Source: Nostoc punctiforme PCC 73102 (GTDB lineage Bacteria; Cyanobacteriota; Cyanobacteriia; Cyanobacteriales; Nostocaceae). From it: a stretch of 32,000 bases of DNA. The position numbers were made by a program, and so were the translations under genes. Below are positions 3,001 to 30,758 of this stretch, piece after piece. Location: assembly GCF_000020025.1 (NCBI RefSeq), contig NC_010628.1, positions 8,202,323 through 8,234,322 of the forward strand, written 5' to 3'. The notes beneath the pieces were generated by a model, which had not been told where the DNA came from, did not search any database, and saw nothing but the letters and a program-made list of their open reading frames with translations. The number at the start of each line of letters is the position of its first letter. Position 1 is the stretch's first letter.

Positions 3001-3220
3001 AGCGATCGCACTTCCTCAGATTACAGTAACAGCGATCGCACTTTCTCAAATTACAGCAAAAGCGATCGCATTTTCTGAGATTACAGTAATAGCGATCGCA
3101 CTTTCTCAAATTACAGTAATAGCGATCGCATTTTCTGAGATTACAGTAATAGCGATCGCACTTCCTCAGATTACAATAACAGCGATCGCACTTTCTCAAA
3201 TTACAGCAAAAGCGATCGCT
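3001..3220. repeat. tandem repeat, 30 bp unit x 7 plus a partial copy; each unit starts with a HIP1 site
   Basis: The unit AGCGATCGCACTTTCTCAAATTACAGTAAT repeats head to tail at 3001, 3031, 3061, 3091, 3121, 3151 and 3181, with a partial copy at 3211. There are a few substitutions per copy (CTT/TTT, CAAA/GAGA). No unique spacers lie between units. Confidence 0.95.
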
Positions 3221-3308: not shown

Positions 3309-3476
3309 GCGTTTCATCAACAAACTCATGCGTTTCATCAACAAAGGCATGCGTTTCATCAACAAACTCATGCGTTTCATCAACAAACTCATGCGTTTCA
3401 TCAACAAAGGCATGCGTTTCATCAACAAAAGCATGAGTTTCATCAACAAAAGCATGAGTTTCATCAACAAAGGCAT
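3309..3476. repeat. tandem repeat, 21 bp unit x 8
   Basis: GCGTTTCATCAACAAACTCAT-type units repeat every 21 bp from 3309 to 3476. Variants are AAACTC/AAAGGC/AAAAGC and GCG/GAG. The two track ORFs here (3279-3476 and 3328-3549) are just translations of the repeat. Confidence 0.95.
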
Positions 3477-3663: not shown

Positions 3664-6600
3664 TCACCTGCGTGTGCCAATATCATCACATAAATGCTTA
3701 TCGTCCTTGCTCACATTGGGGTTATTTTGCAAATAATCGCGCACCCAAGTACAACCCTTAACCATTAAATCATCCAAATTGAGATTCCACAGTTTCACCG
3801 TCTTGTCAGAACTTGCAGAGGCAATGGTTTGACCGTCGGGGCTAAATGCCACGCCCCAAACCGAACTGCTATGACCAGTGAGAGTTTGTAAGAGTTGCCC
3901 GTTGCGATTCCACAGCTTCACCGTCTTGTCATCACTTGCAGAGGCAATGGTTTGACCGTCGGGGCTAAATGCCACGCCCCTAACCGAACTGCTATGACCA
4001 GTGAGAGTTTGTAAGAGTTGCCCGTTGCGATTCCACAGCTTCACCGTCTTGTCATCACTTGCAGAGGCAATGGTTTGACCGTCGGGGCTAAATGCCACGC
4101 CCCTAACCGAACTGCTATGACCAGTGAGAGTTTGTAAGAGTTGCCCGTTGCGATTCCACAGCTTCACCGTCTTGTCATCACTTGCAGAGGCAATGGTTTG
4201 ATCGTCGGGGCTAAATGCCACGCCCCAAACCGAACTGCTATGACCAGTGAGAGTTTGTAAGAGTTGCCCGTTGCGATTCCACAGCTTCACCGTCTTGTCA
4301 TCACTTGCAGAGGCAATGGTTTGACCGTCGGGGCTAAATGCCACGCCCCTAACCGAACTGCTATGACCAGTGAGAGTTTGTAAGAGTTGCCCGTTGCGAT
4401 TCCACAGCTTCACCGTCTTGTCATCACTTGCAGAGGCAATGGTTTGACCGTCGGGGCTAAATGCCACGCCCCAAACCGAACTGCTATGACCAGTGAGAGT
4501 TTGTAAGAGTTGCCCGTTGCGATTCCACAGCTTCACCGTCTTGTCATCACTTGCAGAGGCAATGGTTTGACCGTCGGGGCTAAATGCCACGCCCCAAACC
4601 GAACTGCTATGACCAGTGAGAGTTTGTAAGAGTTGCCCGTTGCGATTCCACAGCTTCACCGTCTTGTCATCACTTGCAGAGGCAATGGTTTGACCGTCGG
4701 GCCTAAATGCCACGCCATTAACCGAACTGCTATGACCAGTGAGAGTTTGTAAGAGTTGCCCGTTGCGATTCCACAGCTTCACCGTCTTGTCATCACTTGC
4801 AGAGGCAATGGTTTGACCGTCGGGGCTAAATGCCACGCCCCTAACCGAACTGCTATGACCAGTGAGAGTTTGTAAGAGTTGCCCGTTGCGATTCCACAGC
4901 TTCACCGTCTTGTCATCACTTGCAGAGGCAATGGTTTGACCGTCGGGGCTAAATGCCACGCCCCAAACCGAACTGCTATGACCAGTGAGAGTTTGTAAGA
5001 GTTGCCCGTTGCGATTCCACAGCTTCACCGTCTTGTCATCACTTGCAGAGGCAATGGTTTGACCGTCGGGGCTAAATGCCACGCCCCAAACCGAACTGCT
5101 ATGACCAGTGAGAGTTTGTAAGAGTTGCCCGTTGCGATTCCACAGCTTCACCGTCTTGTCATCACTTGCAGAGGCAATGGTTTGACCGTCGGGGCTAAAT
5201 GCCACGCCCCTAACCGAACTGCTATGACCAGTGAGAGTTTGTAAGAGTTGCCCGTTGCGATTCCACAGCTTCACCGTCTTGTCATCACTTGCAGAGGCAA
5301 TGGTTTGACCGTCGGGGCTAAATGCCACGCCCCAAACCGAACTGCTATGACCAGTGAGAGTTTGTAAGAGTTGCCCGTTGCGATTCCACAGCTTCACCGT
5401 CTTGTCATCACTTGCAGAGGCAATGGTTTGACCGTCGGGGCTAAATGCCACGCCCCTAACCGAACTGCTATGAGCTTCTAATCGGTTACGTTCTTTGACT
5501 CCATAAATTACTTGCTGGAGTGTGGCTACTGCCAAAACGCGGGTATTTGGTTCTACCTTTTTATTTGGTGTTTTGAGTCGTTTTCCTACCTTCAAACCTT
5601 CTATTAAAGCATCAAGTTCAAAATTTGATGCCATCAGGTTTTGTGATTTCAGGCTATTGGCAAGAATTTCGGCATTTATCCGGCGTTTATCTGCATCGGC
5701 TTTGGCGGCAATTGCTTGCTGTTCTTGTTTCTGGGCAATGTTTCGCTGTTTTTCAGCGTCTGCCTGTCTATCCTTTGCTAATTGTTCAGCCGCTTTTGTT
5801 TGCTTAAGGGCTTTTTCTAAGTCTATTCCTCGTTTTTCTGCTAATTCCTGTGCCGACTTGGCTTGTGCCTCACCTGTTTCAGCCCTTTGACGCTGCTTGT
5901 CTGCCTCCCGGTGTTGTTCCTCTGCTTTTTGCTGCTGGTTCTGAGCATTTTTTGTTTGACGGTCTGCTTCTTGCCGCTGTGTTTGTTCTCTTTTTAGGGC
6001 ATCTTGAGCAATTAAACGTTGCTCTTTTTCACTGTCACGGGCTTTTTGGGCAATCAGATTTTGCTTGTAAATATACCAAGCGACTCCCGTCGATAATGTC
6101 GAAAATACAATCATTACAATCACATAAGGCAGTGCAGGTTTAAGCTGTTCCCATCTATCCCGCAAGTTAAACGGCAAATGTTTATTAATCCACTTATAAT
6201 CAAAGACTTGCCGATAAACTTCATTCCGCACCCGCAAAACATTATTCTCCCGCCGCACCACCCCTGAAAGCTTTAAGTGAGATTTAGCTAAAGACTGTTC
6301 TTCATCCACAACCGCCCGCTTACCCCAGCGAATCTCGCGGTAAATAGTCAAAACCTCCGGGTCTGGTGAGCGTTTGGTGAGCATATCGCGGACAAACTGC
6401 AAGTTATTGTCTTGTTCGCTCATTGCGCCAAAAAATGTGCTGCTAACTATGCTGTCTATATCGGCAGAGGATAAGACTCGATCCCCCCTAACCCCCCTTA
6501 AGAAGGGGGGAACAATAGAACTGTTGCTAACGGGGGCTGTGGGAATCTCCAAATCTGGAAGTTCATTGCCCCCCTTTTTAAGGGGGGTTGGGGGGATCAA

Positions 6601-7353
6601 AACCAAGGCATCACAGAGACGCTGCGTTAAATAAGGATGTCCCCCCGTCCACTTCAACACCTGGCGTAATACCTGCTTAGACTCATCGCTGGGTAATCCC
6701 AATCCCTCAGCGAAGGGTAAGGCTTCCTCAAAGGTAAAATCAGTTAAATCCACACGCTGTCCAATATTAAACGGTGTGCGCTTGGCATCGCTGATTAAAT
6801 CGCCGGGAGTCGCTACCCCCATTAAAACAAAAGAAAGCCGCCCAAACTCAGGATTAGTCGCACGGGCAACATAGAGATAACGAATTGCGATAAAAAAATC
6901 ATCGGTAAAATCCAGGCTGAGGGTAGAGTCAATTTCATCCACAAAAATCACCACTTGCCCTTCAACCTCAGCCAGCAAAACCTTCTCAAAAAACTGTGTC
7001 AGCCGTTGCGATACTCCCAGATGCTCGTGTTCTTGCCACCAACTCACCACATCTGTATCAAACATAAGTTGGTCATCCAGTTTGACCAAAAAGCCAAAAT
7101 ACCACTGTTCGGCTGTGACACTTGCCCCCAATTCCTGAAGGTCAACAATTACTGAGCTAATCCCCTCTTCCCTTAATGTGTCTGCCGTGCGTACCATCAG
7201 GCTAGACTTACCCATTTGGCGCGGCGTTAGCACATAGGCGAATATTGCTGACCGACATAAACCAAGCAATTCCTCATCAGCTTGACGGGGAATGTAAATC
7301 CCACTGCCAGCCTGTACAGTCCCCCCCACGGTGTAAATGCTTGGATTACCCAC
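3664..7353 (-). CDS. STAND/AAA-like P-loop NTPase - TM helix - coiled coil - 14x WD40 repeat protein
   Basis: 1229 aa with a GTG start at 7351-7353. The N-terminus YTVGGTV...IPRQADEEL, Walker A TPRQMGKSSL, Walker B VVIFVDEIDS and GGHPYLTQRL match the cyanobacterial 'AAA-like domain' family (Pfam AAA_35 as I recall it). A hydrophobic segment ALPYVIVMIVFSTLSTGVAWYIY follows. Then come ~170 aa rich in Q/K/E/A, and 14 units of HSSSVxGVAFSPDGQTIASASDDKTVKLWNRNGQLLQTLTG. Confidence 0.92.
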   Translation of the reverse strand: MGNPSIYTVGGTVQAGSGIYIPRQADEELLGLCRSAIFAYVLTPRQMGKSSLMVRTADTLREEGISSVIVDLQELGASVTAEQWYFGFLVKLDDQLMFDTDVVSWWQEHEHLGVSQRLTQFFEKVLLAEVEGQVVIFVDEIDSTLSLDFTDDFFIAIRYLYVARATNPEFGRLSFVLMGVATPGDLISDAKRTPFNIGQRVDLTDFTFEEALPFAEGLGLPSDESKQVLRQVLKWTGGHPYLTQRLCDALVLIPPTPLKKGGNELPDLEIPTAPVSNSSIVPPFLRGVRGDRVLSSADIDSIVSSTFFGAMSEQDNNLQFVRDMLTKRSPDPEVLTIYREIRWGKRAVVDEEQSLAKSHLKLSGVVRRENNVLRVRNEVYRQVFDYKWINKHLPFNLRDRWEQLKPALPYVIVMIVFSTLSTGVAWYIYKQNLIAQKARDSEKEQRLIAQDALKREQTQRQEADRQTKNAQNQQQKAEEQHREADKQRQRAETGEAQAKSAQELAEKRGIDLEKALKQTKAAEQLAKDRQADAEKQRNIAQKQEQQAIAAKADADKRRINAEILANSLKSQNLMASNFELDALIEGLKVGKRLKTPNKKVEPNTRVLAVATLQQVIYGVKERNRLEAHSSSVRGVAFSPDGQTIASASDDKTVKLWNRNGQLLQTLTGHSSSVWGVAFSPDGQTIASASDDKTVKLWNRNGQLLQTLTGHSSSVRGVAFSPDGQTIASASDDKTVKLWNRNGQLLQTLTGHSSSVWGVAFSPDGQTIASASDDKTVKLWNRNGQLLQTLTGHSSSVWGVAFSPDGQTIASASDDKTVKLWNRNGQLLQTLTGHSSSVRGVAFSPDGQTIASASDDKTVKLWNRNGQLLQTLTGHSSSVNGVAFRPDGQTIASASDDKTVKLWNRNGQLLQTLTGHSSSVWGVAFSPDGQTIASASDDKTVKLWNRNGQLLQTLTGHSSSVWGVAFSPDGQTIASASDDKTVKLWNRNGQLLQTLTGHSSSVRGVAFSPDGQTIASASDDKTVKLWNRNGQLLQTLTGHSSSVWGVAFSPDDQTIASASDDKTVKLWNRNGQLLQTLTGHSSSVRGVAFSPDGQTIASASDDKTVKLWNRNGQLLQTLTGHSSSVRGVAFSPDGQTIASASDDKTVKLWNRNGQLLQTLTGHSSSVWGVAFSPDGQTIASASSDKTVKLWNLNLDDLMVKGCTWVRDYLQNNPNVSKDDKHLCDDIGTRR
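3783..5474 (-). repeat. intragenic tandem repeat, 123 bp unit x ~14 (WD40 blades), near-identical at the DNA level
   Basis: A 123 bp periodicity is visible by eye (for example GCTAAATGCCACGCCCC[A/T]AACCGAACTGCTATGACCAGTGAGAGTTTGTAAGAGTTGCCCGTTGCGATTCCACAGCTTCACCGTCTTGTCATCACTTGCAGAGGCAATGGTTTGACCGTCGGG). Most units differ by a single nucleotide. Confidence 0.95.
6480..6598. mobile_element. MITE-like palindromic element inserted in frame within the NTPase-WD40 gene
   Basis: GATCCCCCCTAACCCCCCTTAAGAAGGGGGG (6480-) is an almost perfect inverted repeat of CCCCCCTTTTTAAGGGGGGTTGGGGGGATC (-6598). The two arms flank a ~55 bp core. The element is translated as IPPTPLKKGGNELPDLEIPTAPVSNSSIVPPFLRGVRGD, between the conserved GGHPYLTQRLCDAL and SSADIDSIV segments. 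Confidence 0.75.
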
Positions 7354-8881
7354 GTAGATGCTCCCGGAAATAATCGGTATAAAGTTGACAACGAGGAAAC
7401 ACTACACGCCCTTCCCGGCGCACCAAACCCGCACCCCGCAACCGGAAAAAGATGCGCTCATCTTCACAGGTGTTCTGGTGAATTACTTGGAACATACCTT
7501 GAACCAACTCCTGTTTGTTATGCAGCCGGAAGAGGTGGTTACGCAAATGATTGCCAAAGGGGCCATCCTCTGCGATCGCATTGGCAAATAATTCGGTAGG
7601 ATAGAGGCGATCGCTAGCAACTGAGTAAAGTGCAAGGCGTACTAAGTAAGGATGTCCACCTAGCAACGCTATTAATTGCTTTTCTTCGCTGGCATTGAAG
7701 GGTGAACCATGACGGCGGTTTAAATCAGCAACCTGTGCTGCTGTAAAATCTTCTAAATCAATTACTAGCCCAACATTAAAGGGGGATTGGTTGAGATTAT
7801 CAATTAGCTGGTAGGGTTCGGTGGAAGTAACCAGCGCTAAATCCAGTTGCTTCCAGATGGGATTAGTGGCGCGGCTATTGTGCCAGCTTCGCAGCATTCC
7901 AAAGAAATCAGAGCGAAAATCAGTATCAAAGACCCTTTCAACTTCATCCATCGCTAAGACAATGGGGTTGCCAAACTCTTTGAGCAAATAGCGGCCGACG
8001 TAGCGAGTGCAACGCTGACTATTGCCCAAAGGCATATTCCAATACTCATCAACTTTATCTGTCATTTCCAGTTCATCAGTTAACCAAGTACAGAACTGGC
8101 GAAAGAAAAGGTCAGCATTAGTTAAGGCAGCTTTGTCAAACAATTGAAAATCCAGCAAAGCAACCCGCTTACCTGCATTCACAGCAGTATTAATTGTGCG
8201 GATTAACAGGGAACTTTTGCCCATTTGCCGGGGGCCTTTAATTGTAATTGTCACACCCTGCCGCTCAATAGTCTCTAAAGTAAGGGCATCAGATGAGCGT
8301 TCCACGTAAAAAGCGGATTGCGATTCCATTGTTCCTTCGGGCATTTCCAGGGAGACAGGCTGTGCTGAAGGAAAGGGACGGGGTAGGAGTGACGGCTGAC
8401 TCTTCTGGATTAAGTCTGCTTTTGATTTTTCTTCACTGATAGCTAATGCACCGCCATAGACAGCCTGCAACAACTCTGCAATTAGTCGCGGCGTATCTTC
8501 TGCATCTTTCCAGAATGCCCAGTTAATCCCATTTAAGTAAGCACTCAAGGGATACAGGAACGGTTCTTGATACGCCAGACGCACCGGGAGAATTATCGGT
8601 CGTCCTGACTGTGATTTTGCCAAGTGGTGTGCTGTCTCTATCTCTGCCACCACCATCTCGCTGCTAGTTGACAAAGCAGAAAGGAAAGTAATCAAAAAAT
8701 CAGCTTGGCGGATTTCTGCTTCAATACATTCAGCCCAGCGTGTGCCAACAGACATGGTTTGGTCGATGAAGACTTTGTGCTGCTGCGATAGTGCTTGGAA
8801 GACTTGGAGTGCTACTGGTTCATCGGGGCTAGCATTACGCTTGTAACTGATGAAGATGCGTTTAGCCTGTGAGTTTAACAT
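7346..8881 (-). CDS. TIR domain - STAND/AAA-like P-loop NTPase
   Basis: 511 aa. The N-terminus RIFISYKRN...VFIDQ...GTRW...ADFLITFLS...SSEMVVAEIE has a TIR_2-like pattern with the conserved Glu retained. Then come FYVERSSD, Walker A GPRQMGKSSL, Walker B VLAMDEVE and GGHPYLVRL, paralogous to the downstream gene's NTPase. The TAA stop at 7346-7348 overlaps the downstream GTG start by 8 nt. Confidence 0.88.
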   Translation of the reverse strand: MLNSQAKRIFISYKRNASPDEPVALQVFQALSQQHKVFIDQTMSVGTRWAECIEAEIRQADFLITFLSALSTSSEMVVAEIETAHHLAKSQSGRPIILPVRLAYQEPFLYPLSAYLNGINWAFWKDAEDTPRLIAELLQAVYGGALAISEEKSKADLIQKSQPSLLPRPFPSAQPVSLEMPEGTMESQSAFYVERSSDALTLETIERQGVTITIKGPRQMGKSSLLIRTINTAVNAGKRVALLDFQLFDKAALTNADLFFRQFCTWLTDELEMTDKVDEYWNMPLGNSQRCTRYVGRYLLKEFGNPIVLAMDEVERVFDTDFRSDFFGMLRSWHNSRATNPIWKQLDLALVTSTEPYQLIDNLNQSPFNVGLVIDLEDFTAAQVADLNRRHGSPFNASEEKQLIALLGGHPYLVRLALYSVASDRLYPTELFANAIAEDGPFGNHLRNHLFRLHNKQELVQGMFQVIHQNTCEDERIFFRLRGAGLVRREGRVVFPRCQLYTDYFREHLRG

Positions 8882-9111
8882 TACTATTAACCTTGTCTTC
8901 CTTCAGCTTTTTAAGTAGAAAAGCTTATCTAATTGCGTGTCAATTTTGTACAGAAGTTGGGTAATTCTGTGCTTTGTCATCCAAGGGCATTTTTTCCCTA
9001 TTTCGAGAATTAGCTGAACAAATTAGGATTTTATTCACAGCGCTATCAATTAGTTACACTCTACTACAGCGCAGTTGCAGGCAATTACCGACAGCACAAA
9101 AAAATTGCTTA

Positions 9112-9237
9112 CGGAGTTCAAAGGCTCATTAACGGAGTTCAAAGACTCGTTAACAGAGCTAAAAGACTCGTTAATGGAGCTAAAAGACTCGTTAACGGAG
9201 TTCAAAGACTCGTTAACGGAGTTCAAAAACTCGTTAG
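9112..9237. repeat. tandem repeat, 21 bp unit x 6
   Basis: CGGAGTTCAAAGACTCGTTAA-type units start at 9112, 9133, 9154, 9175, 9196 and 9217, with a few substitutions (GGAGTTC/AGAGCTA/GGAGCTA). Confidence 0.95.
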
Positions 9238-12172: not shown

Positions 12173-13489
12173 TCATTTGGGTTTATCTACTTTCATCTGT
12201 GAAAACACACGATAACCATCTAGATTCAACTGCGGATTACTGCTTTGTTCTTCTTCCATCTTAATCAAGTTATATTCTACGTTTTCTGCATAAATTGCAA
12301 ACGTGATATTAAAAATCTCCATAAAATTGATTACACCTTTACATTCATCTTCAGGATAGTTTTCGTAAAAACGAATCAGATGAGCAATCCGAGTTTCTAA
12401 ATGACGACGGGAATTATTACAAATTAGAATGATTTTTAAAAGTATAATGACCAATGTTAGAGCATGACCTTGACTAATTAACAACATAAATAATGGTGAA
12501 GGTTCCTTGTTATTTTCTATTGTCAAGCAATCAATTACTCGATTACAGGTTCTTAGAAACAATTCTTTAGTGATAACTTCCTGATTATAATCCTTCTTCC
12601 ATGATGATAAAATCTCCATAAACTGCTGTTTCCATATCTCAACTGATTCTTTTCCTACAGAAAGGAATAGATATTTTTCCAGATTAATTTTAAATTCTTC
12701 TAGAGTCTGATTTTGAGTTTGCTTGATAAATATATGAGCAATATTCTCATGACTAAAAACCCCTCTTTTTAAAACAATTGCTTTGATTAAACGTAGAGCC
12801 TGGTCTCCCAAAACACTAGGATTTTTATAGCGTGCTGTGCTTGAAACGGTAGATTGAGAACGAGCAATATACATTGCCAGTTCAAACTTAAATTTTTCTT
12901 TTATCTGTTTAGAAAGCTTTCTAGCAGCCTCTTGTTGCTCTATGGGATTATTTTTATTAACAGATTGATCGATTAATAAATAAGAACTATAGCGATTAGC
13001 CCAATGACCTTTAGATGATTCATCATATTTAGCAGCAAATAGTTTCAACTCTTGGTAGTCTTTGCTGTTGACAAAATTCTCTAACCAAGTTTTACAAATC
13101 TTTACTACTGGGTCATTATTGTCCTTGATCTGGAGATTTTCATTAACAAATAAATTAACTAATTCTTGGATATATTTATCTTTTCGATTAGTCTTCCAAT
13201 TATTAACTATAATGTAGCAACACCGCTTGAGTGTATTATATAATTCTTGCTCATTATCATCTAAAAAAATACTATATATCCCAGGAATATAATCTGACTC
13301 TTCTGAATCAAGACCGTCTATAAATAAACCTTTGAATTCTCGCAAAACATCATCTGGTGACAGTTTTTTGACAATTTCCATGAAGAAGCTATAAACCTCT
13401 TCTTGTGCAATTTGCACATTTATCTGTCTGGAGCTAGACGTAACACTATGGGGATTTTCCTGACTAATTGATAAACTATTAGCGTTCAT
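12173..13489 (-). CDS. hypothetical protein (no recognisable domain), AT-rich
   Basis: A 438 aa uninterrupted ORF in a visibly AT-rich stretch. It is rich in K/N/I/E and has one hydrophobic segment (FMLLISQGHALTLVIILLKIILI). I recognise no catalytic motifs. Confidence 0.6.
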   Translation of the reverse strand: MNANSLSISQENPHSVTSSSRQINVQIAQEEVYSFFMEIVKKLSPDDVLREFKGLFIDGLDSEESDYIPGIYSIFLDDNEQELYNTLKRCCYIIVNNWKTNRKDKYIQELVNLFVNENLQIKDNNDPVVKICKTWLENFVNSKDYQELKLFAAKYDESSKGHWANRYSSYLLIDQSVNKNNPIEQQEAARKLSKQIKEKFKFELAMYIARSQSTVSSTARYKNPSVLGDQALRLIKAIVLKRGVFSHENIAHIFIKQTQNQTLEEFKINLEKYLFLSVGKESVEIWKQQFMEILSSWKKDYNQEVITKELFLRTCNRVIDCLTIENNKEPSPLFMLLISQGHALTLVIILLKIILICNNSRRHLETRIAHLIRFYENYPEDECKGVINFMEIFNITFAIYAENVEYNLIKMEEEQSSNPQLNLDGYRVFSQMKVDKPK

Positions 13490-13815: not shown

Positions 13816-13866
13816 TGTCACTTAAAGGATATTGTGGCCGTTTTTAAAGCATAAAGTGGCCGCAGT
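13816..13866. repeat. transposon terminal inverted repeat, distal (tniQ-side) end
   Basis: The sequence is TGTCACTTAAAGGATATTGTGGCCGTTTTTAAAGCATAAAGTGGCCGCAGT. It holds two GTGGCCG-containing putative transposase-binding repeats about 22 bp apart. Confidence 0.85.
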
Positions 13867-13900
13867 AGTAAAACCTTAGAGAAAGGCGAATAAATAAGAT

Positions 13901-15487
13901 TTACTGTGAAAGATCCAGTCTTATCTGCCTTAAAACATCAATTACCTCAGCCTGCCACAGCAAAGAGGGATGAGGCATAAATTTTCTGAGATTTTTAGCA
14001 GTAGGGGTAATGCCTTGTGCATGAAGTACTGAAGCGAGTTGGCGTACTTCTCGACAGCCTTGCTCAATAGCTAGTTTATGGACGAATTTGCGGTAATCTT
14101 TATAGCGTAAAGAAATAGCATGGCACACAATAGGGCAATAGTGGTAGAAAGTAGCCAAACCAATACCAGTTCTCTTAGCTATTTTTCTTAGAGAAGGTGG
14201 TGGATACTCGTCGCTAAACAAAGCTAATTCAAGTATGTCTCTGATGTGTAAAAATCTTAGCTGCTGTTGATATTCACTATATCTAGTAGCCAAAGATGCT
14301 GATAAAGATTTTGAGCAAGCAGTTAAACTACTAGGAGTTTTGAATCCTAAACGAACAGCTAATTGAGTTAAAGAAGGAGGTGGTTCTTCTTCTTGAGCTA
14401 GTTGCATCGCCTGAATAACTCGTTCGCACTTAGGACTACTATTTGAAGTAACTAAAGCAGACTGTGATGATAATTTTTTCTGTTTAGGAGCAGGTAGAGA
14501 AACTAGCTGCTTAAGAGTAAGAGGTAGTATTTTAAGTTGAAGAAAATCGACAAGATTAGTTGATAAGGCGTAGCAGATTTTCAAAAGTTTATCTAAATTT
14601 GGGATGGCTACACCTGAATACCAATGTAGAATTTCATATCTCGATAACCCAAGCCAACGACCAAAAGCGGAAACATTACCTTGAGTATATTGATAGACGT
14701 AAGCTTCTAGGATTGTTTTAATAGTCTCTCTTGGAGGTGGACAAGGAAATTCAGGAGCTTGAGCAATTAAATCTCCTAAAGTCTTAACTATCCAAATCTC
14801 TTGCTGTAAATTGGGTATCTCCTCGAACAATCTCTTATCTGGCAAAGATACTTCATAGTTCATCCCCAACCAACCACCACATTTCAGACAAAATCCAGGT
14901 CGTGAGTTATGCCACAGGTGTAAAAATTCAAGGTCACAGTGAGGACATTTTGATTCTAAAAATCGATAATGGATGGGACAAATGTTAGCTGGTTTCAAAG
15001 CCCACAGCAGAGGTGAATAAATGACTTGTTGATTATTTAACCAGTCTTGATAGCAATAAGGACACCAAGCATGAGAATGCTTGAGCAATCCCAAAACTGG
15101 GAAGACTTTTGCCCAAGGTAGCATTGTCAAAAACTGTAAGTCAGTACGTTTTGTCAATATTTCTAGAGCAAAAACCAGTTGTTTAGCTCCAATTTGTGTT
15201 CCGTTTAAAGCTTTTACAGAAGCTTGTCCATACAAACTTACGATACTTTTAGAATTCAAGGGATTGGTAGTATGGTTATGCCCAACTATTGGTTTTATCT
15301 CTCTAGCCAATAAAGTTCCAGGCAATACGCTATGAGCTGCGGCTAGACGAGCAACATAGCTAGTCAGACTTTCAACATAACAAGTACCAAGTCCAATCGG
15401 TTCCAGATGAAACAACCGGCTAGGACTGGGAGTAAATTCTGGGTCTTTGAGCCACAATTCATCGTTAACCGCCATGTTAGTCATCAT
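13901..15487 (-). CDS. tniQ: TniQ-family target-selection protein, long TnsD-like form
   Basis: 528 aa. The N-terminus PSRLFHLEPIGLGTCYVESLTSYVARLAAAH is a typical TniQ domain. Cys clusters follow (CPYCYQDW...CPIH, CPHCD...CLKCG). The C-terminus has two HTH-like copies (PPPSLTQLAVRLG, PPPSLRKIAKRTG). It overlaps the tnsC stop by 11 nt. Confidence 0.85.
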   Translation of the reverse strand: MMTNMAVNDELWLKDPEFTPSPSRLFHLEPIGLGTCYVESLTSYVARLAAAHSVLPGTLLAREIKPIVGHNHTTNPLNSKSIVSLYGQASVKALNGTQIGAKQLVFALEILTKRTDLQFLTMLPWAKVFPVLGLLKHSHAWCPYCYQDWLNNQQVIYSPLLWALKPANICPIHYRFLESKCPHCDLEFLHLWHNSRPGFCLKCGGWLGMNYEVSLPDKRLFEEIPNLQQEIWIVKTLGDLIAQAPEFPCPPPRETIKTILEAYVYQYTQGNVSAFGRWLGLSRYEILHWYSGVAIPNLDKLLKICYALSTNLVDFLQLKILPLTLKQLVSLPAPKQKKLSSQSALVTSNSSPKCERVIQAMQLAQEEEPPPSLTQLAVRLGFKTPSSLTACSKSLSASLATRYSEYQQQLRFLHIRDILELALFSDEYPPPSLRKIAKRTGIGLATFYHYCPIVCHAISLRYKDYRKFVHKLAIEQGCREVRQLASVLHAQGITPTAKNLRKFMPHPSLLWQAEVIDVLRQIRLDLSQ

Positions 15488-16616
15488 CTGAATTTACCCC
15501 TACATCATCTCTTTTAGGTTTTCTTTGTCCAACACGACCTTTTTTGAGTAGGGAATTTTTGGCTGGCATTTTTATTCCATGTTCTGTTGAATATTGCCGC
15601 TCAAAAAAACTGGATTCTTCTTGAAAGCGTTTAAATCCCTGTTGTGCTTCTTCCTTAATTTTGTTGATACGAGATGCAGAAAAAGCACCTAATTTAAGAT
15701 GTTTGCTATTAAGAGTCCGAGCTTCTTCAGAATAGGCAACTCTCAAAGAACGAGTTAACCAATTCTTCAATAGCCCCACACAACCAACTGAGCCAGAAAA
15801 AAGATACTCATAGTGTTGTTCTAATTTTGGTTCTTGTACAAGCGGAATGTGGCGTTGAAAAGTTCTAATTACTCTAATAAATTCAGCAATATCTTCTGGG
15901 TTATCAGCTTGGTAAGGTAACAGGTGAATATCTTCGCTACGCCGCCCTATTTGCCCATTCAAGGTAGGACAGTTAAGCAGTTCATAAGTTCCAAATAAAA
16001 TATGTACTGTACCAGTAAGATTAGCAATAGACTTAATCCAGTTCATTTGCTGTAACATCTGGTGTCCGCCTGCCATCATAAATAAATGCTGTGCCTCGTC
16101 TACAGTAAAAGCTTTTACCTGACGATAACGAAATGCTTTTTCCATTGCTCGGCGTAATGCGGGCGAATCTTGGCGGTAAGCCCGATTTAGCAACCCCAAA
16201 TCCTTTACCTCACCGTGAGGAATTTCATAATCAATTTTGTATTCAATCAAAACTTCCTGAAGGGATTCTAGGGCGCGAGTGTAATAATCTTTATAGCTAA
16301 ACTTTCCTTGTTCTGTTGGAATAGCTTCAATACCAGCAACAGCAATTTGACCAGGATTTTGGCGTAATGAGGGGAGAAATTCGTAATTTAGCAGATTTTC
16401 CAGACGCAAGCGTAAGGTTGTTTTTCCTACACCAGTCACACCAAAAACTAAAAATACTAAAGTGTCAGCTGGCTCCAGAATATTAATTAATAAAGTATCT
16501 AAGGCTTGTTTGAGCCTTTGATGTGGAATAGTGATACTTTTGAAATAATCAGTTTTAATTTCGTTCGGCTGTAAGAGAAGTTCTTCTGGAAAAGAGTGCG
16601 ACTGAATTTTTACCAT
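15477..16616 (-). CDS. tnsC: TnsC/TniB-like AAA+ ATPase of a Tn7-like transposon
   Basis: 379 aa. Walker A is FGVTGVGKTT and Walker B is FTVDEAQHL. GAGGAG lies upstream of the ATG. The gene sits between the transposase and tniQ, as in Tn7-like operons. Confidence 0.85.
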   Translation of the reverse strand: MVKIQSHSFPEELLLQPNEIKTDYFKSITIPHQRLKQALDTLLINILEPADTLVFLVFGVTGVGKTTLRLRLENLLNYEFLPSLRQNPGQIAVAGIEAIPTEQGKFSYKDYYTRALESLQEVLIEYKIDYEIPHGEVKDLGLLNRAYRQDSPALRRAMEKAFRYRQVKAFTVDEAQHLFMMAGGHQMLQQMNWIKSIANLTGTVHILFGTYELLNCPTLNGQIGRRSEDIHLLPYQADNPEDIAEFIRVIRTFQRHIPLVQEPKLEQHYEYLFSGSVGCVGLLKNWLTRSLRVAYSEEARTLNSKHLKLGAFSASRINKIKEEAQQGFKRFQEESSFFERQYSTEHGIKMPAKNSLLKKGRVGQRKPKRDDVGVNSDDD

Positions 16617-16784
16617 AGCTCCTCTGTATTGTAAGCTTCTATTTTGGTTAAATCTATTAATTTTTTTGCTGATGATTTTGGCTTTTTAATGCTTTCTGAA
16701 CCTGCCAAAATATTTTTATCTACATCTTGAACATTAGCTGAATAATTGTGTTTACTTAATTTACTTTCAATAACTGAGCTTTTT

Positions 16785-19220
16785 TCAATTAAAAGCCCAA
16801 ATATCTTGTTGTGCTAAATCATGTAAGCGTTGTAATAACAAAGTTTCTTGGGCTTCAGTTCCTTCTAAATATGTAGCTTTTTCTTGGGCAGATAGAGTAA
16901 TTCTTTGAGCGTGTTTCTGCCTTTTTCGACGTAATTGTGTGCTGGCTATGTTCACTTCTTTTTCGGAACGATTTTGGAAGGATTTGTAATGTTCAGAAAT
17001 ACAGCGTATCCAACGTCCCTTAACGTAAGCATAAGCAGTCCCCATATCAAAAGGGTCGTAACGAATAGGTACATTAGTTCCTTCAATTTCTGGTCTTATG
17101 AACGAATCATCAATTGACCAATAGTAGAGATAATTAATTTTCACGCCTCTACTTGGTTGAACTTTTGCAGTTCCTTTAGGTGTAGAAGGTAAGGTAAAAA
17201 TCTTAAAATTATCATCATAAATAATCTGTTTCTGAGGGCGATAACCACTTGAATTTAGCCCTGACATAAAAGTTTGACGTGGGCTTTGTCCTAATGTTGG
17301 ATGTTCTCTGCAATCATAGAATTCGTAACAATATGAACAAAAGTTTTCGTAGAGTTGATCTAGTGTCCAAACAGCTTGATTTTTGGGATTATTTGATTTC
17401 GTGACTTGGCGGACATTCTTAGTAATTTGAGTGTTGCCTCTAAGATTATAAAAAAACTCTGTATTTGTAGTTCCAAAAATACGTTCAATAATTGAACCAA
17501 ATCTGGCTTTCGCAGCTGGTCGCTGCTTTTTGGTACATTCAAAAGCCGCTAACAAGGTCTCAAAGTATGTACTACTAAATTCTGTCCCACCGTCAACAAC
17601 TATTGTCTCTGGTAATTTCTCAAATCGCTGTACGCAGATTCTTAATACCATCATGCAACTACGGTAGCTTGGCTCGTCAAAAGTTAGGTAAACTGCGAGA
17701 ATACGTCGGCTGTAAGCATCGATTAACAGAGTTGCCCAAGGTCTACCAAGAAGATAACCTGTTCGGGAGCATACTAACTCAATATCCAGTTGCGTATGGT
17801 CAATGTGTGCTATCTCAAATGGACGGTCGCCATGACATGGTGTGGTTAATTTCAACTCCCAATACAATAAAGATTGTTGATAAGCTGCTCTGTTTCCCTT
17901 ACGTTTTTTTGTTTGCCTATAACCAGAACGATGTTGAATTCTAGAACAAAATGTAGCGTAGCTAGGCAGCTTATCTGTTAGACCTGCTTTCTCCCATTCT
18001 CTTGCTAGAATTCCATAAACAGCTAGTTTGCTTCTTTGTTGAAAAGTTTCATAATATTCTTCAATTATTTTGTCAATGAAATCTTGAGACGATTGAGAAA
18101 TTCTGGGTAAGCGATTGCCTCTAGCATTAGAGTTATTTAGCAGCCCAATATAACCACATTTGTACGCCTTTTGTGCTGCTATAAACTTAGCCTTCCATCT
18201 GCGAATAGTACGTTGTGGAACAGTTTCTTTATCTCTATAACTGTCATTAAGATAAGGTTCAATTACTTCATATCTTCGGTTAGCTTCTGCCAAGTCTTCA
18301 GGACTAGCTCTCAAAAAACGCTCCATTGCTTTTGGAGACATTTTTACTTGATTATGAGTTTTAGGTTCCAGTTGATTGGGTTTAACATCTAAAATATTCA
18401 GAATCGTTCCATTATTCGGTTGCGATTTTATCATTTGTACATAAGCTACCGCGATTTCTTGGTCACGGAAAAGCTGTACTTTTTCTGGCTCTGCTAAGGG
18501 TGCGGCACTCAAATTAATGTAAATTTTTTTTGTAGCTATTAAAGCATTTATGTCATCAGGATTGCTCTGTTGAGTATGAATCATTTCCCAATAACTTATG
18601 CCCGGATTTAAGCTAATTAACTTCACCAAATTTTCAGCTATTTCTGGGTCAATTTGGTAATCTTCAGTAGTATAGGCTTTGAGAAATAGTCGATTTCTGT
18701 ATTTAATCCAATCAATTTCTGTATCTAACCGAATTCGGTAATACAGTCCTAATTTTTCTGCATAAGCAACTGCTGGCAGGTTTAACCACTGCCCATCTTC
18801 TGAACGCATATAACGTTGTGATTGTTTAGCTGCTAATTTTTCTAATCTTGATTCTGGTTTCCACTCTTCAAAACCTGCACTCCGCTTCCGAATTACGAAA
18901 AAGTCTGGTATATGCGAAGCTTTGATTATTTCCCCACTGCTTGAGGGGAATTCTAGAGTAATTTGATATGCTTGGTCGTAGTATTCGAGTACATCTGCGT
19001 CTTCTTCGTACTCCTCTACACCTGGCAATTCAATTTTATGGGACTCAAATTGAATAGTTTTTCCCATTTTGCGACTGGCGTAGTCGCCCCGGACATTTAT
19101 ACCACTGCTTTTGACTCGCCGAATTGGTTCAGAGGCACGGATTTGGGAAATTAATTGCCTAGCCTCTTGTGGTAAATTTACGCCGCGACACCAATCATTA
19201 AACTCTTGGTCGCTCAACAT
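16785..19220 (-). CDS. tnsAB: fused TnsA-like endonuclease / TnsB-like DDE transposase
   Basis: The track ORF runs to a GTG at 19262, but the ATG at 19220 (MLSDQEFNDW) is the more likely start. The N-terminal ~130 aa carry a TnsA-type E/D/K pattern (FESHKIELPG ... HIPDFFV ... FEEWKPES). The rest is a Mu/TnsB-type DDE core (HIDHTQLDI, LLIDAYSRR, VVDGGTEFSS, SIIERIFGT). Confidence 0.85.
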   Translation of the reverse strand: MLSDQEFNDWCRGVNLPQEARQLISQIRASEPIRRVKSSGINVRGDYASRKMGKTIQFESHKIELPGVEEYEEDADVLEYYDQAYQITLEFPSSSGEIIKASHIPDFFVIRKRSAGFEEWKPESRLEKLAAKQSQRYMRSEDGQWLNLPAVAYAEKLGLYYRIRLDTEIDWIKYRNRLFLKAYTTEDYQIDPEIAENLVKLISLNPGISYWEMIHTQQSNPDDINALIATKKIYINLSAAPLAEPEKVQLFRDQEIAVAYVQMIKSQPNNGTILNILDVKPNQLEPKTHNQVKMSPKAMERFLRASPEDLAEANRRYEVIEPYLNDSYRDKETVPQRTIRRWKAKFIAAQKAYKCGYIGLLNNSNARGNRLPRISQSSQDFIDKIIEEYYETFQQRSKLAVYGILAREWEKAGLTDKLPSYATFCSRIQHRSGYRQTKKRKGNRAAYQQSLLYWELKLTTPCHGDRPFEIAHIDHTQLDIELVCSRTGYLLGRPWATLLIDAYSRRILAVYLTFDEPSYRSCMMVLRICVQRFEKLPETIVVDGGTEFSSTYFETLLAAFECTKKQRPAAKARFGSIIERIFGTTNTEFFYNLRGNTQITKNVRQVTKSNNPKNQAVWTLDQLYENFCSYCYEFYDCREHPTLGQSPRQTFMSGLNSSGYRPQKQIIYDDNFKIFTLPSTPKGTAKVQPSRGVKINYLYYWSIDDSFIRPEIEGTNVPIRYDPFDMGTAYAYVKGRWIRCISEHYKSFQNRSEKEVNIASTQLRRKRQKHAQRITLSAQEKATYLEGTEAQETLLLQRLHDLAQQDIWAFN

Positions 19221-19330
19221 ATTGGCCCCCAAGCTTTTAAAGCCGCAACAAGCTCTTACCACAAATCTAGGCTTTCGCCAGTTAAACAGTCTTTTATTGA
19301 TATAAATATTTATACTTACCAGTTCAGATG

Positions 19331-19381
19331 ACTGCGGCCACTTTATGGTTTAAAAACGGCCACAATATCCTTTAAGTGACA
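19331..19381. repeat. transposon terminal inverted repeat, tRNA-proximal (tnsAB-side) end
   Basis: ACTGCGGCCACTTTATGGTTTAAAAACGGCCACAATATCCTTTAAGTGACA is the reverse complement of the 13816-13866 end apart from one mismatch. Confidence 0.85.
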
Positions 19382-19412
19382 CAAAAAGCTTTTTGGCATT
19401 TTCAATTTTTAG

Positions 19413-19788
19413 TGGGGGTGGAGGGACTTGAACCCACACGACCTATTACGGTCAACGGATTTTCATCCTCCCGCAGTTTTCACTGCTACCTGATGGCAAT
19501 AGCCAAATCAGATTTTGAGAATTGGACTCTCCCTTTACCCTCGACTTTACGTTAGGGTAGCTCCCGTCGGGTCTCTGCACCTTCCCTCAATTTTGGGTTT
19601 TGGATTTTAGATTGAAAACTAATCCCAAATCTAAAATCGCAAATCTAAAATTTTCGGGCTTGGCTCAGGATTGCCATGTCTGTCACCAGATTTAGGTTTC
19701 CCTGAGTTTGAGAGCTTCCACTTGAGGGATTTCTCCTTCAAGGCTCAGTTATCTAAGTCCGTAGCGTCTACCATTCCGCCACACCCCC
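19413..19788 (-). tRNA. trnL: tRNA-Leu(UAA) gene interrupted by a group I intron (5' exon 19755-19788, 3' exon 19413-19463)
   Basis: On the minus strand, GGGGGTGTGGCGGAATGGTAGACGCTACGGACTT is followed by the intron and then AAAATCCGTTGACCGTAATAGGTCGTGTGGGTTCAAGTCCCTCCACCCCCA. The joined exons give the anticodon loop CUUAAAA (anticodon UAA), a long variable arm, a GGGGGUG/CACCCCC acceptor stem and a TTCAAGT T-loop. CCA is not encoded. The T-stem shows one U-U mismatch (GTGGG/CCCTC). Confidence 0.9.
19464..19754 (-). ncRNA. group I (IC3-type) self-splicing intron of tRNA-Leu(UAA)
   Basis: The intron lies between U34 and A35 of the anticodon. It contains the conserved blocks of the Anabaena-type intron: GAGCCTTGAAGGAGAAATCCCTCAAGTGGAAGCTCTCAAACTCAGGGAAACCTAAATCT, GGCAATCCTGAGCCAAGCC, GGAAGGTGCAGAGACCCGACGGGAGCTACCCTAACG, GAGGGTAAAGGGAGAGTCCAATTCTCAAA, and a terminal ...GGAGGATG (omega-G). 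Confidence 0.9.
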
Positions 19789-21092: not shown

Positions 21093-21141
21093 CGACTAAT
21101 GACCAATGACCAATGACTAATGACTAATAACTAATGACTGC
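21093..21141. repeat. STRR heptamer array (TGACCAA/TGACTAA, STRR2-type) running into the trpA start codon
   Basis: The array reads CGACTAA TGACCAA TGACCAA TGACTAA TGACTAA TAACTAA TGACTGC. The trpA ATG at 21134 lies inside it. Confidence 0.9.
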
Positions 21142-30079: not shown

Positions 30080-30081
30080 AT

Positions 30082-30127
30082 AATTCGTAATTCGTAATTC
30101 GTAATTCGTAATTCGTAATTCGTAATT
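30082..30127. repeat. STRR-type heptamer array (AATTCGT x 6 plus a partial copy)
   Basis: AATTCGT repeats perfectly at 30082, 30089, 30096, 30103, 30110 and 30117, then AATT. The array lies between convergent genes. Confidence 0.95.
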
Positions 30128-30693: not shown

Positions 30694-30758
30694 TTGGGGA
30701 ATAGGGAATGGGGAATTGGGCATTGACTAATGACCAATGACCAATGACTAATGACAAA
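30694..30758. repeat. two adjacent STRR heptamer arrays (AATAGGG/AATGGGG/AATTGGG and TGACTAA/TGACCAA) between the protease and def genes
   Basis: Bases 30694-30720 read AATAGGG AATGGGG AATTGGG. Bases 30724-30758 read TGACTAA TGACCAA TGACCAA TGACTAA TGACAAA. Confidence 0.85.

Follow-up and report, generated by a model that had tools for sequence, protein, structure and literature searches.

How does a bacterial gene come to encode fourteen WD40 blades that are almost identical to one another, and what is the role of the one residue at which these blades still differ widely? This question is raised by the gene Npun_R6612 in a 32,000-nt stretch of the Nostoc punctiforme PCC 73102 genome, which is referred to here as the window. 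We consider it highly probable that the blades, known as WRAP, serve as the ligand-sensing end of an NLR-like system consisting of two genes, in which an old 14-blade array has recently been homogenised while one position per blade, R1, continues to vary.

Tandem Repeats Finder detected a repeat at 3779-5473 with a period of 123 bp, 13.8 copies, 98% matches and a score of 3285, located in the C-terminal half of the 1229-aa open reading frame (Table 1). The motif HSSSV occurs 14 times at a spacing of exactly 41 residues, and unit i starts at 5472-123(i-1). Pfam recognised 14 WD40 stretches (E 3.4e-206), and the DHSW tetrad (H1, S19/S21, D23, W29) is present in every unit; tblastn found no further WD40 units elsewhere in the window. 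Repeat finding and motif spacing thus bear out the fourteen near-identical 123-bp units of the original prediction, whose placement at 3783-5474 was correct to approximately 30 nt and which had not given the strand (minus).

Homogenisation extends from 5472 to approximately 3810, and the last unit departs from the repeat from its nucleotide 92 onwards, so that the array comprises 13 full units and about three quarters of a fourteenth. Within units 1-13 (1599 nt), the only variable nucleotide columns are 16, 17, 18, 33 and 41. The residue that follows HSSSV runs RWRWWRNWWRWRRW along the 14 blades and is encoded by AGG, TGG or, in unit 7, AAT, with column 16 divided into 7 A and 7 T. These codons begin at 5457, 5334, 5211, 5088, 4965, 4842 and 4719 in units 1-7 and at 4596, 4473, 4350, 4227, 4104, 3981 and 3858 in units 8-14, which gives a mix of 3R+3W+N in the first propeller and of 3R+4W in the second. 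This order and its codons are exactly as originally read, and the isolated changes were likewise all recovered: blade 7 has S>R (AGC>AGG), blade 11 has G>D (GGT>GAT) and blade 14 has D>S (GAT>TCT). Unit 14 additionally carries one synonymous change, AAG>AAA, at codon 27 (window 3793).

Table 1. Features of the sensor gene and its partner gene (positions in the window).
Feature	Position	Strand	Evidence
Sensor gene Npun_R6612, 1229 aa: STAND ATPase, transmembrane helix, coiled-coil stalk (probable), 14 WD40 blades, Cys-pair tail	3664..7353	-	ORF, Pfam, 2YMU
Non-repeat C-terminal tail LNLDDLMVKGCxWxRDYLxNNPNVxxxDxxLCDDIG	3667..3783	-	Conserved in most complete orthologues
Fourteen 123-bp WD40 units (WRAP domain)	3751..5472	-	Tandem Repeats Finder, HSSSV spacing, tblastn
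Variable R1 codon (TGG/AGG/AAT), every 123 bp	3856..5457	-	Column 16 split and V-R1-R2-V fingerprint (PMC3419727)
A/Q/K/E-rich linker, ~170 residues, probable coiled-coil stalk	5554..6066	-	Composition; weak Pfam Borrelia_P83 match
Single predicted transmembrane helix PALPYVIVMIVFSTLSTGVAWYIY, residues 406-429	6067..6138	-	Kyte-Doolittle 19-residue mean 1.86
STAND NTPase module, Pfam AAA_35, residues 11-245	6619..7323	-	E 2.9e-36; Walker A PRQMGKSS, Walker B VIFVDE
Upstream partner gene, TIR + STAND (AAA_35), 511 aa	7346..8881	-	TIR_2 1.4e-18, AAA_35 2.1e-121

Comparison with PDB 2YMU showed 572 of 573 residues to be identical (chain residues 5-577). The 577-residue construct agrees with the genome in its 14 blades, in their W/R/N order and in the substitutions S>R, G>D and D>S; the sole difference between 2YMU and the genome is L>H at position 35 of blade 8. 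By sequence identity, the array is the WRAP domain of Npun_R6612 of N. punctiforme PCC 73102, and two closed 7-bladed propellers are assigned to it from the solved structure. Because the crystallised construct carries 14 blades in the same W/R order, the blade count, which had been flagged as needing confirmation, is settled. An exact database look-up of the WD40 protein returned no match, the likely cause being that its GTG start was translated as V.

The whole observation is a rediscovery of a published, crystallised protein and is not new. The literature on WRAP and 2YMU includes Chaudhuri 2008, Dunin-Horkawicz 2014, Afanasieva 2019 and Pereira & Lupas 2022. Since 2008 the array has been the reference "just amplified" beta-propeller, with a crystal structure, a blade-by-blade dissection and use as a protein-design template; as a discovery it adds nothing. 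Publications from 2008-2022 describe the near-identical 14 blades, the Trp/Arg site and the two 7-bladed propellers, and have already reported the lack of synonymous changes in the array and its operon with a TIR-STAND gene (PMC6805158, PMC9218822, PMC8458387, PMC5587647). The raw sequence alone had nevertheless been enough for the original prediction to recover a real and remarkable feature together with its correct interpretation.

The partner gene and the sensor gene share 8 nt, and the product of the partner gene is an exact match to ACC84871.1 / WP_012412804.1 of N. punctiforme PCC 73102. Both proteins match AAA_35 (PF14516) with intact Walker A and Walker B motifs (GKS, hhhhDE), and their STAND modules are 33% identical. 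The pair of TIR-STAND gene and sensor gene is conserved at 65 of 75 loci. PADLOC gave no significant defence-system match (best E-values 1.9e-4 to 0.06, over short stretches), and in NCBIfam the TIR domain reached only 28.8 bits against Thoeris type III ThcB4, below the cutoff of 220. A literature search on the function, ligand or phenotype of the two genes found none, and one on AAA_35 / PF14516 returned unrelated papers only.

Two other origins for the locus were considered and rejected. The operon is not cargo of the adjoining Tn7-like transposon, as it lies outside the 51-nt inverted repeats of that element at 13816-19381; a 5-bp target-site duplication of the element was not found, its flanks AACAA and CAAAA being different. 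Nor does the array appear to be the target of a diversity-generating retroelement, with no RT among 20 neighbouring ORFs and with TGG/AGG/AAT codons that are not adenine-templated.

In the explanation that we prefer, the upstream gene encodes a STAND ATPase to which a TIR effector is fused, and Npun_R6612 encodes a paralogous STAND ATPase followed by a membrane helix, a long stalk and two 7-bladed propellers made of the 14 blades. In this view, the 14-blade design is old and common to the orthologues, and the 123-bp units recombine with one another by unequal crossing-over, slippage or gene conversion, so that loss, copying and overwriting of blades happen again and again. In PCC 73102, one blade variant, or a two-blade W+R pair, has then displaced all others very recently, and this takeover left approximately 1.66 kb without synonymous variation. 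The W/R/N residue, the one position still widely variable, is R1, which rises from each blade at the rim of the central channel, the site of partner binding in WD40 proteins. A ligand bound on the R1 face could then lead to STAND oligomerisation with the TIR partner and to TIR-mediated (NAD-consuming) cell death or defence. We infer this order, from ligand through oligomer to TIR activity, by analogy with STAND/NLR systems; it also draws on the proposal of Dunin-Horkawicz et al. 2014, in the form in which PMC9218822 cites it.

The variable site was placed on the propeller by the V-R1-R2-V fingerprint; R1, R1-2 and D-1 follow published definitions, according to which R1 of the WDb-a beta-bulge protrudes on the WD40 top face (PMC3419727). 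Because V5 W6 G7 V8 of the unit matches this fingerprint, the W/R/N site, at unit position 6, is read as the R1 top-face hotspot. In 20 orthologous arrays, within-array entropy peaks at unit positions 22, 6, 4, 3, 24 and 7, with R1 ranking second, and only positions 6 and 22 of these vary in the PCC 73102 array. At R1, the orthologues carry N, F, L, Y, K, E, T, S and M, arranged differently in many arrays. In these 20 arrays, piN/piS mostly exceeds 1 at the hot codons, against 0.14-0.45 at most of the remaining codons; the figures are plain pairwise counts made on repeats that recombine, and indels in two arrays possibly disturb the register. Variation is thus concentrated on a few surface positions, as had been proposed for this type of repeat, and fingerprint, entropy, piN/piS and the match to fungal codons described below all agree with the suggestion that the R/W/N residue is a putative ligand-contacting hotspot on the propeller face.

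The age of the array was approached by comparison with the orthologues. Within-array piS is 0.000 in PCC 73102 versus 0.04-0.43 in the 20 orthologous arrays, and for the N-terminal region that flanks the array, synonymous divergence from the nearest complete orthologues amounts to 0.21-0.34. The array differs from every other array by 2-5 fixed differences, and all of its 13 full blades have in common states that no other array has, such as GCA (codon 20) and ACT (codon 40). The earlier suggestion of concerted evolution or recent amplification accords with the piS and the fixed differences, and the same conclusion has been published (PMC6805158, PMC9218822). Pairwise comparison of seven other Nostoc arrays yielded 0-2 fixed differences (most pairs none) and 1-8 shared blade polymorphisms, and a linked two-nucleotide ACC>ATT variant is common to four other Nostoc arrays. 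Recurrent mutation at third codon positions may account for part of the shared polymorphisms. The blade count is 14 in 15 complete orthologues with the same C-terminal tail and an N-terminal pS of up to ~0.75; 15, 11 or 0-6 units were counted in other orthologous arrays, most of which come from short-read assemblies where the repeat may have collapsed. No positional orthology of blades was found between the arrays of different species, many blades being nearest to a blade of another species, and multi-blade block duplications inside orthologous arrays left weak traces only.

These data bear on the published reading, in which each strain amplified its array strictly de novo from one blade, as opposed to concerted turnover of a standing 14-blade array. 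The states at codons 20 and 40 that are private to PCC 73102 agree with such an amplification, as do the array-specific nucleotides reported in four WRAP homologues (PMC9218822), but the other Nostoc arrays share blade polymorphisms with most pairs lacking fixed differences, the nearest relative of many blades lies in another species, and the 14-blade count is conserved together with both flanks. Furthermore, the terms "gene conversion", "concerted", "unequal" and "recombination" do not occur in PMC9218822. We hold strict de novo amplification to be possible but doubtful. The difference between the two models is one of degree, and for PCC 73102 itself they are indistinguishable; for the relatives, the evidence tends to favour turnover of a standing array of 14 blades over repeated births from one blade.

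Neutral hitch-hiking is an unlikely alternative, according to which an early single W<->R change or an amplified W+R pair was spread by tandem duplication in the absence of any selection or hotspot. Five tandem-duplication steps are enough to contract the string RWRWWR(R)WWRWRRW to "RW", as is usual for random 7/7 strings, and one W/R mutation plus five tandem duplications can account for the W/R pattern. A runs test on the W/R order was not significant (p=0.21), and neither was selection within the PCC 73102 array alone, where the probability that all changes are nonsynonymous is ~0.15-0.25 for 5-7 mutational events. However, R1 is hypervariable in 20 independent orthologous arrays, most of which have piN/piS >1 at the hot codons, and hitch-hiking leaves the family-wide focus on R1, R1-2 and D-1 unexplained. 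As the mechanical origin of the W/R order, neutral hitch-hiking is compatible with the recombination-based explanation that we prefer.

A structural role of the W/R mixture is less probable still. Here, seven Trp or seven Arg at the narrow channel mouth would be unfavourable on steric or electrostatic grounds, and the mix, possibly through cation-pi contacts, would aid folding or stability rather than constitute a recognition code. The R1 side chains are indeed crowded between adjacent blades (PMC3419727), and the designers of WRAP-T, an engineered derivative of the Npun_R6612 array in which R1 is Thr, decided against all-Arg because they feared a "supercharged" core (PMC8458387); both propellers are also balanced in their R and W content. 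Yet WRAP-T, whose seven R1 residues are all Thr, forms a stable propeller of 7 blades (PMC8458387), and all-Trp fragments fold as 8- to 10-blade assemblies (PMC6805158), so that no particular W/R mix is required. Moreover, the orthologues place nine other residues at R1, the entropy of R1 co-varies with that of R1-2 and D-1, both of which lie outside the pore, and a 3/4 split between the propellers is expected by chance (~71%, hypergeometric calculation).

The weakest alternative, that the near-identical units, or their number and order, result from mis-assembly or consensus polishing of the repeat, is already largely refuted and very improbable: near-perfect 1.7-kb repeats are difficult to assemble, and the assembly risk originally raised does apply to the relatives, where 22 orthologous ORFs run off the contig end inside the array, several short-read assemblies hold in-frame 0-6-unit arrays that are possibly collapses, and Logan short-read contigs with the exact TIR-STAND protein (<=2.6 kb) end before the array, but 2YMU has the identical blade number and substitution pattern, its L>H difference suggests independent cloning from genomic DNA rather than synthesis from a database entry, the 8.23-Mb contig of the neighbouring gene is consistent with the assembled PCC 73102 chromosome, and the 15 complete orthologues also have 14 units.

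A close parallel for a variable array of this type is provided by the HNWD/HET-E/HET-D NLRs of Podospora anserina, in which near-identical 41-42-residue WD40 units likewise follow a STAND NTPase. In the fungal HET-E/NWD repeats, codons 7, 9, 25 and 27 are under positive selection (PMC1805685), and these codons correspond to WRAP positions 4, 6, 22 and 24, which ties the cyanobacterial family to the fungal receptors codon for codon. In both, hypervariability falls on two codon pairs that flank a conserved residue, and the repeats are reshuffled, show no positional orthology and defeat short-read assembly. In contrast to the fungal proteins, the NTPase here is AAA_35, with no NACHT match in Pfam searches, the effector resides on the separate TIR-STAND protein, and the sensor has a transmembrane helix and a stalk. 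The PCC 73102 array is also far more homogenised than typical fungal alleles. To our knowledge, RIP does not exist in bacteria.

Apaf-1 chains were the best non-WRAP matches in the PDB (E ~3e-71). Apaf-1 similarly combines a STAND ATPase with two WD40 propellers as sensor, but it is cytosolic and has NB-ARC, 7+8 divergent blades and, within the same chain, a CARD, whereas Npun_R6612 has AAA_35, 7+7 near-identical blades, a TIR domain on the partner and a membrane helix. The logic of a STAND protein with a repeat sensor and the TIR effector domain are shared with Avs, bNACHT and Thoeris-type TIR effectors, from which the present system differs in lacking a significant PADLOC match and in its sub-threshold Thoeris type III score. 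PkwA of Thermomonospora curvata (PDB 5YZV), WRAP-T and Tako8 are, like WRAP, highly symmetric bacterial or designed WD40 propellers of close sequence; PkwA differs in that it has 7 blades, is ~60% identical and is fused to a Ser/Thr kinase.

The location of the sensor is raised as a question by the predicted membrane helix, which is kept in 36 of 36 close orthologues, and the answer would change which ligands merit a search. Mean K+R counts of the helix flanks are 3.8 on the N-side versus 2.5 on the C-side, with N exceeding C in 36 of 45 proteins (positive-inside rule). The ~170-residue linker behind the helix is, from its composition, probably a coiled-coil stalk; neither stalk nor Cys tail gave a meaningful Pfam match. 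The only cysteines after the helix are the two of the tail, C1201 and C1222, and most complete orthologues have kept this pair. In paralogues that occupy the same place in the operon, the STAND module and the helix are retained but the WD40 blades are replaced by CHASE2, which is an extracytoplasmic sensor domain (PMC8195603). Because of the conserved helix, the charge bias of its flanks, the CHASE2 paralogues and the restriction of post-helix cysteines to the tail pair, we give an even chance to a topology in which the STAND ATPase would be inside the cell, the stalk, the 14 blades and the disulfide-capable Cys-pair tail would be periplasmic, and the hypervariable ring would read an extracellular cue. 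The protein would then be a transmembrane NLR-like receptor with the layout of a Toll-like receptor (repeats outside, a helix, and signalling inside to a TIR protein), and its ring of R1, R1-2 and D-1 would read a cue such as part of a phage, a filament nearby or a symbiosis signal. A non-cytoplasmic topology of the propellers may already be known; the word "transmembrane" is absent from PMC9218822 and PMC6805158.

A minor observation concerns codon 27 of the terminal blade. Its AAA was tried as a conserved marker of the array flank and rejected, being terminal-specific in one orthologous locus only (L010) and present in all blades of another (L042). The published claim that the array contains no synonymous substitution overlooks the AAG>AAA change in blade 14 or treats it as flank.

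The 1229-residue ORF that contains the WD40 array (Npun_R6612, hereafter the sensor) was read unit by unit, which fully confirmed the 14 near-identical 123-bp blades, the R/W/N order and the singleton changes described in the original prediction; its array coordinates also held, with the minus strand and slightly wider unit boundaries as additions. HSSSV occurs 14 times in the protein at a spacing of exactly 41 residues, and the residue after it reads R W R W W R N W W R W R R W along units 1 to 14. Units 1-13 (1599 nt) contain five variable nucleotide columns in all: column 16, split evenly between A and T at seven units each (codon AGG, Arg, or TGG, Trp); columns 17 and 18, variant only in unit 7 (codon AAT, Asn); column 33, likewise variant only in unit 7 (AGC>AGG, S>R); and column 41, where unit 11 alone differs (GGT>GAT, G>D). 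The last unit, 14, carries GAT>TCT (D>S) and leaves the repeat at nt 92, from where a non-repeat tail follows. No WD40 units were found elsewhere in the 32,000-nt window.

This real and remarkable feature is already known as the published WRAP domain, and the interpretation originally given to it, taken as a whole, was correct. The WD40 half is identical to PDB 2YMU at 572 of 573 residues, including all W/R/N and singleton substitutions; the next-best matches are engineered WRAP-T proteins and WRAP fragments. The upstream ORF, which encodes the partner, is an exact match to ACC84871.1 / WP_012412804.1 from Nostoc punctiforme PCC 73102. The 14 blades were described as practically identical and forming two 7-bladed propellers, with 10 amino-acid differences, six of them Trp/Arg at one position (blades 1, 3, 6, 10, 12 and 13), and with 13 nonsynonymous and 0 synonymous substitutions (PMC6805158). 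In contrast to the latter statement, we found a single synonymous change, AAG>AAA, in codon 27 of the last blade, unit 14 (window position 3793, minus strand); with the last array-specific nucleotide on one side (codon 20) and the conserved flank on the other (codon 31), this site may fall outside the homogenised tract. Elsewhere the W/R site was placed on the inner strand and singled out as the sole position of poor conservation; a designed 7-fold propeller carries Thr there instead (PMC8458387). The protein was also catalogued among highly repetitive prokaryotic WD40 proteins (PMC5587647). The WRAP protein contains a STAND ATPase, its gene forms an operon-like pair with a TIR-STAND gene that is conserved in cyanobacteria, and a role in innate immunity was proposed; in close homologues the arrays were homogenised separately, and the propellers are disrupted in many relatives (PMC9218822). 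What remains of value here is a codon-level match to fungal NLR repeats, a concerted-evolution reading of the relatives and a testable question of topology.

Median within-array nucleotide identity is 0.80-0.96 in the orthologues, compared to nearly 1.00 in PCC 73102. Mean within-array entropy over 20 arrays was highest at unit positions 22 (1.78 bits), 6 (1.65), 4 (1.24), 3 (1.11), 24 (0.96) and 7 (0.84), with all remaining positions at or below 0.55 bits. In pairwise Nei-Gojobori counts, piN/piS was mostly above 1 for these six hot codons (range 0.67-8.2) and 0.14-0.45 for cold codons in most arrays. Because the (V/L/I)-R1-R2-(V/L/I) fingerprint, with R1, R1-2 and D-1 as the three canonical top-face hotspots (Wu et al. 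2012, PMC3419727), corresponds to V5-W6-G7-V8 in the WRAP unit, these three hotspots fall on positions 6, 4 and 22, respectively. This placement, the entropy at position 6 and the piN/piS of the hot codons support the suggestion that the R/W/N site is a candidate ligand-contact hotspot on the propeller face. In fungal HET-E/NWD repeats, positive selection acts on codons 7, 9, 25 and 27, which flank the conserved codons 8 and 26 (PMC1805685); shifted by three, these are WRAP positions 4, 6, 22 and 24, flanking V5 and D23, so that the proposed HET-E/NWD analogy holds codon for codon.

The near-identity had been ascribed to recent amplification or concerted evolution, consistent with a cold-site polymorphism of 0 in the PCC 73102 array and 2-5 fixed differences against every other array (GCA at codon 20 and ACT at codon 40 are examples). 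At synonymous sites, the unique N-terminal region has diverged from the nearest complete orthologues by 0.21-0.34; because the consensus blade has changed at the same pace as the gene, the blade sequence is vertically inherited, and no positional orthology of blades was found between species. Seven other Nostoc arrays show 0-2 fixed differences and 1-8 shared blade polymorphisms in pairwise comparisons, and a linked ACC>ATT variant occurs in at least two blades of each of four Nostoc arrays. Taken with the conservation of both the flanks and the count of 14, these shared polymorphisms fit a standing 14-blade array that is turned over by unequal recombination or gene conversion, i.e. concerted evolution, of which PCC 73102 would be the extreme case, a complete and very recent sweep. 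Compared with this, the published model of amplification from one blade, independently in each array, is a difference of degree only and is indistinguishable for PCC 73102, but the relatives, with their common polymorphisms, count and flanks, fit it less well. As recurrent third-codon-position change could contribute, the shared-polymorphism argument for concerted evolution is suggestive only. The terms 'gene conversion', 'concerted', 'unequal' and 'recombination' do not occur in PMC9218822.

With the Asn of unit 7 scored as Arg-derived (AGG>AAT takes two steps, TGG>AAT three), the W/R string reduces to "RW" in five tandem-duplication steps, which is typical for random 7/7 strings, and a runs test on the W/R order was not significant. 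Six independent Trp>Arg mutations are therefore unnecessary; the pattern needs no more than one W/R change or the amplification of a two-blade unit. The all-nonsynonymous outcome has p ~0.15-0.25 with 5-7 mutational events and falls to 0.03 only under an assumption of 12-13 events, so the evidence for selection comes from the family comparison and not from the PCC 73102 array alone. Of the four singleton changes of units 1-13, three (nt 17, 18 and 33: AGG>AAT, AGC>AGG) fall in a single 17-nt stretch inside unit 7, a pattern suggestive of one multi-nucleotide event or a small patch of conversion rather than independent mutations.

The blade count had been considered doubtful. For PCC 73102 this doubt is largely removed by the crystallised construct 2YMU, which has 14 blades in the same order as the genome array. 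Over 573 aligned residues the sole difference is L>H at position 35 of blade 8 (window 4507-4509, minus strand), probably a cloning mutation, which suggests that the construct was cloned from genomic DNA rather than synthesised from a database entry. For relatives the doubt was justified: the ORF runs off the contig end within the array in 22 of 79 related loci from species-representative genomes. Fifteen complete orthologues have 14 units; of the others, one has 15, one 11 and several 0-6, and the in-frame arrays of 0-6 units in several short-read assemblies are possible collapses. Logan short-read contigs of the PCC 73102 locus never reach the array; all start 259 nt upstream of the TIR-STAND gene (~9140), within a tandem repeat.

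Four observations suggest that the ATPase of the sensor lies inside and the propellers outside. The hydrophobic segment is at the same place in 36/36 close orthologues. K+R around it average 3.8 on the N-side versus 2.5 on the C-side, and the N-side value is the higher one in 36 of 45 proteins. Paralogues that occupy this operon slot in relatives (L039, L045, L050, L054, L058, L060, L061, L063 and L066) keep a near-identical STAND module and the first membrane helix, and the stalk and WD40 blades are replaced by CHASE2 (annotated only in L039, L050 and L054, from Atlanticothrix, FACHB-280 and Iningainema relatives), then further C-terminal membrane helices; the sensor module has thus been swapped, and CHASE2 counts as a sensor domain of extracellular location (PMC8195603). 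Beyond the helix, the only cysteines of the sensor are a conserved tail pair spaced 20 residues apart. The word 'transmembrane' occurs in neither of the two open papers searched for it, PMC9218822 and PMC6805158.

The STAND modules of partner and sensor share 33% identity (E 5e-37), and their genes have an 8-nt overlap. Of the 75 loci with enough flank, 65 have a TIR-STAND-like ORF directly upstream of the sensor homologue; some of these ORFs carry an N-terminal extension of ~200 residues, described as a caspase domain (PMC9218822). An in-frame insertion of ~40 residues in the sensor STAND module (LIPPTPLKKGGNELPD...PPFLRGVRGD) coincides with an inverted repeat that has many runs of C and G. 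The closest Nostoc orthologues share the insertion and more distant ones lack it, and in orthologue L020 another insertion occupies the identical spot; it resembles a small element of the dispersed-repeat type that is tolerated within the coding region.

Features of the sensor locus and of the remaining window
Feature	Position	Strand	Details
Sensor ORF	3664-7353	minus	Npun_R6612
AAA_35 STAND module	N-terminal in sensor		Pfam 2.9e-36; Walker A PRQMGKSS, Walker B VIFVDE
Hydrophobic segment	sensor residues 406-429		24 residues, strongly hydrophobic
A/Q/K/E-rich stretch	between hydrophobic segment and blades		~170 residues
Tandem repeat	3779-5473		Tandem Repeats Finder: period 123 bp, 13.8 copies, 98% matches, score 3285
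Units 1-14	5472 down to 3751	minus	
Unit 7	4612-4734	minus	last blade of first propeller
Tail	sensor C-terminus		conserved; only two cysteines beyond hydrophobic segment
STAND insertion	6456-6600	minus	
Inverted repeat	6484-6510 / 6569-6595		27 nt
Partner ORF	7346-8881	minus	TIR_2 + AAA_35 (Pfam)
Tandem repeat	3001-3219		30-nt unit x7.3, containing GCGATCGC; just downstream of WD40 gene
Tandem repeat	3309-3476		21-nt unit x8; just downstream of WD40 gene
Tandem repeat	9111-9236		21-nt unit x6; upstream of TIR-STAND gene
438-aa ORF	12173-13489	minus	GC 0.33
Tn7-like transposon	13816-19381		5.6 kb; GC 0.33-0.39
TniQ	13901-15487		Tn7-like element
TniB	15477-16616		Tn7-like element
TnsA-N + integrase + Mu-transposase-C fusion	16785-19262		Tn7-like element
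tRNA-Leu(UAA)-like gene	19412-19786	minus	
Group I intron	19501-19764		Rfam RF00028, 78 bits
Heptamer repeats	21094-21139, 30081-30127, 30724-30755		GACTAAT, TAATTCG, TGACCAA

Short tandem repeats lie on both sides of the operon. Elsewhere in the window, a tRNA-Leu(UAA)-like gene is split by a group I intron, presumably the reason why ARAGORN reported no tRNA over the window. About 30 bp downstream of it lies a minimal Tn7-like transposon with 51-nt terminal inverted repeats (98% complementary, starting TGTCAC); it has no cargo, and no clean 5-bp target-site duplication was seen. The 438-aa ORF of very low GC just beyond its left end has no Pfam match. Tandemly repeated heptamers at three intergenic positions resemble the short heptamer arrays typical of heterocystous cyanobacteria.
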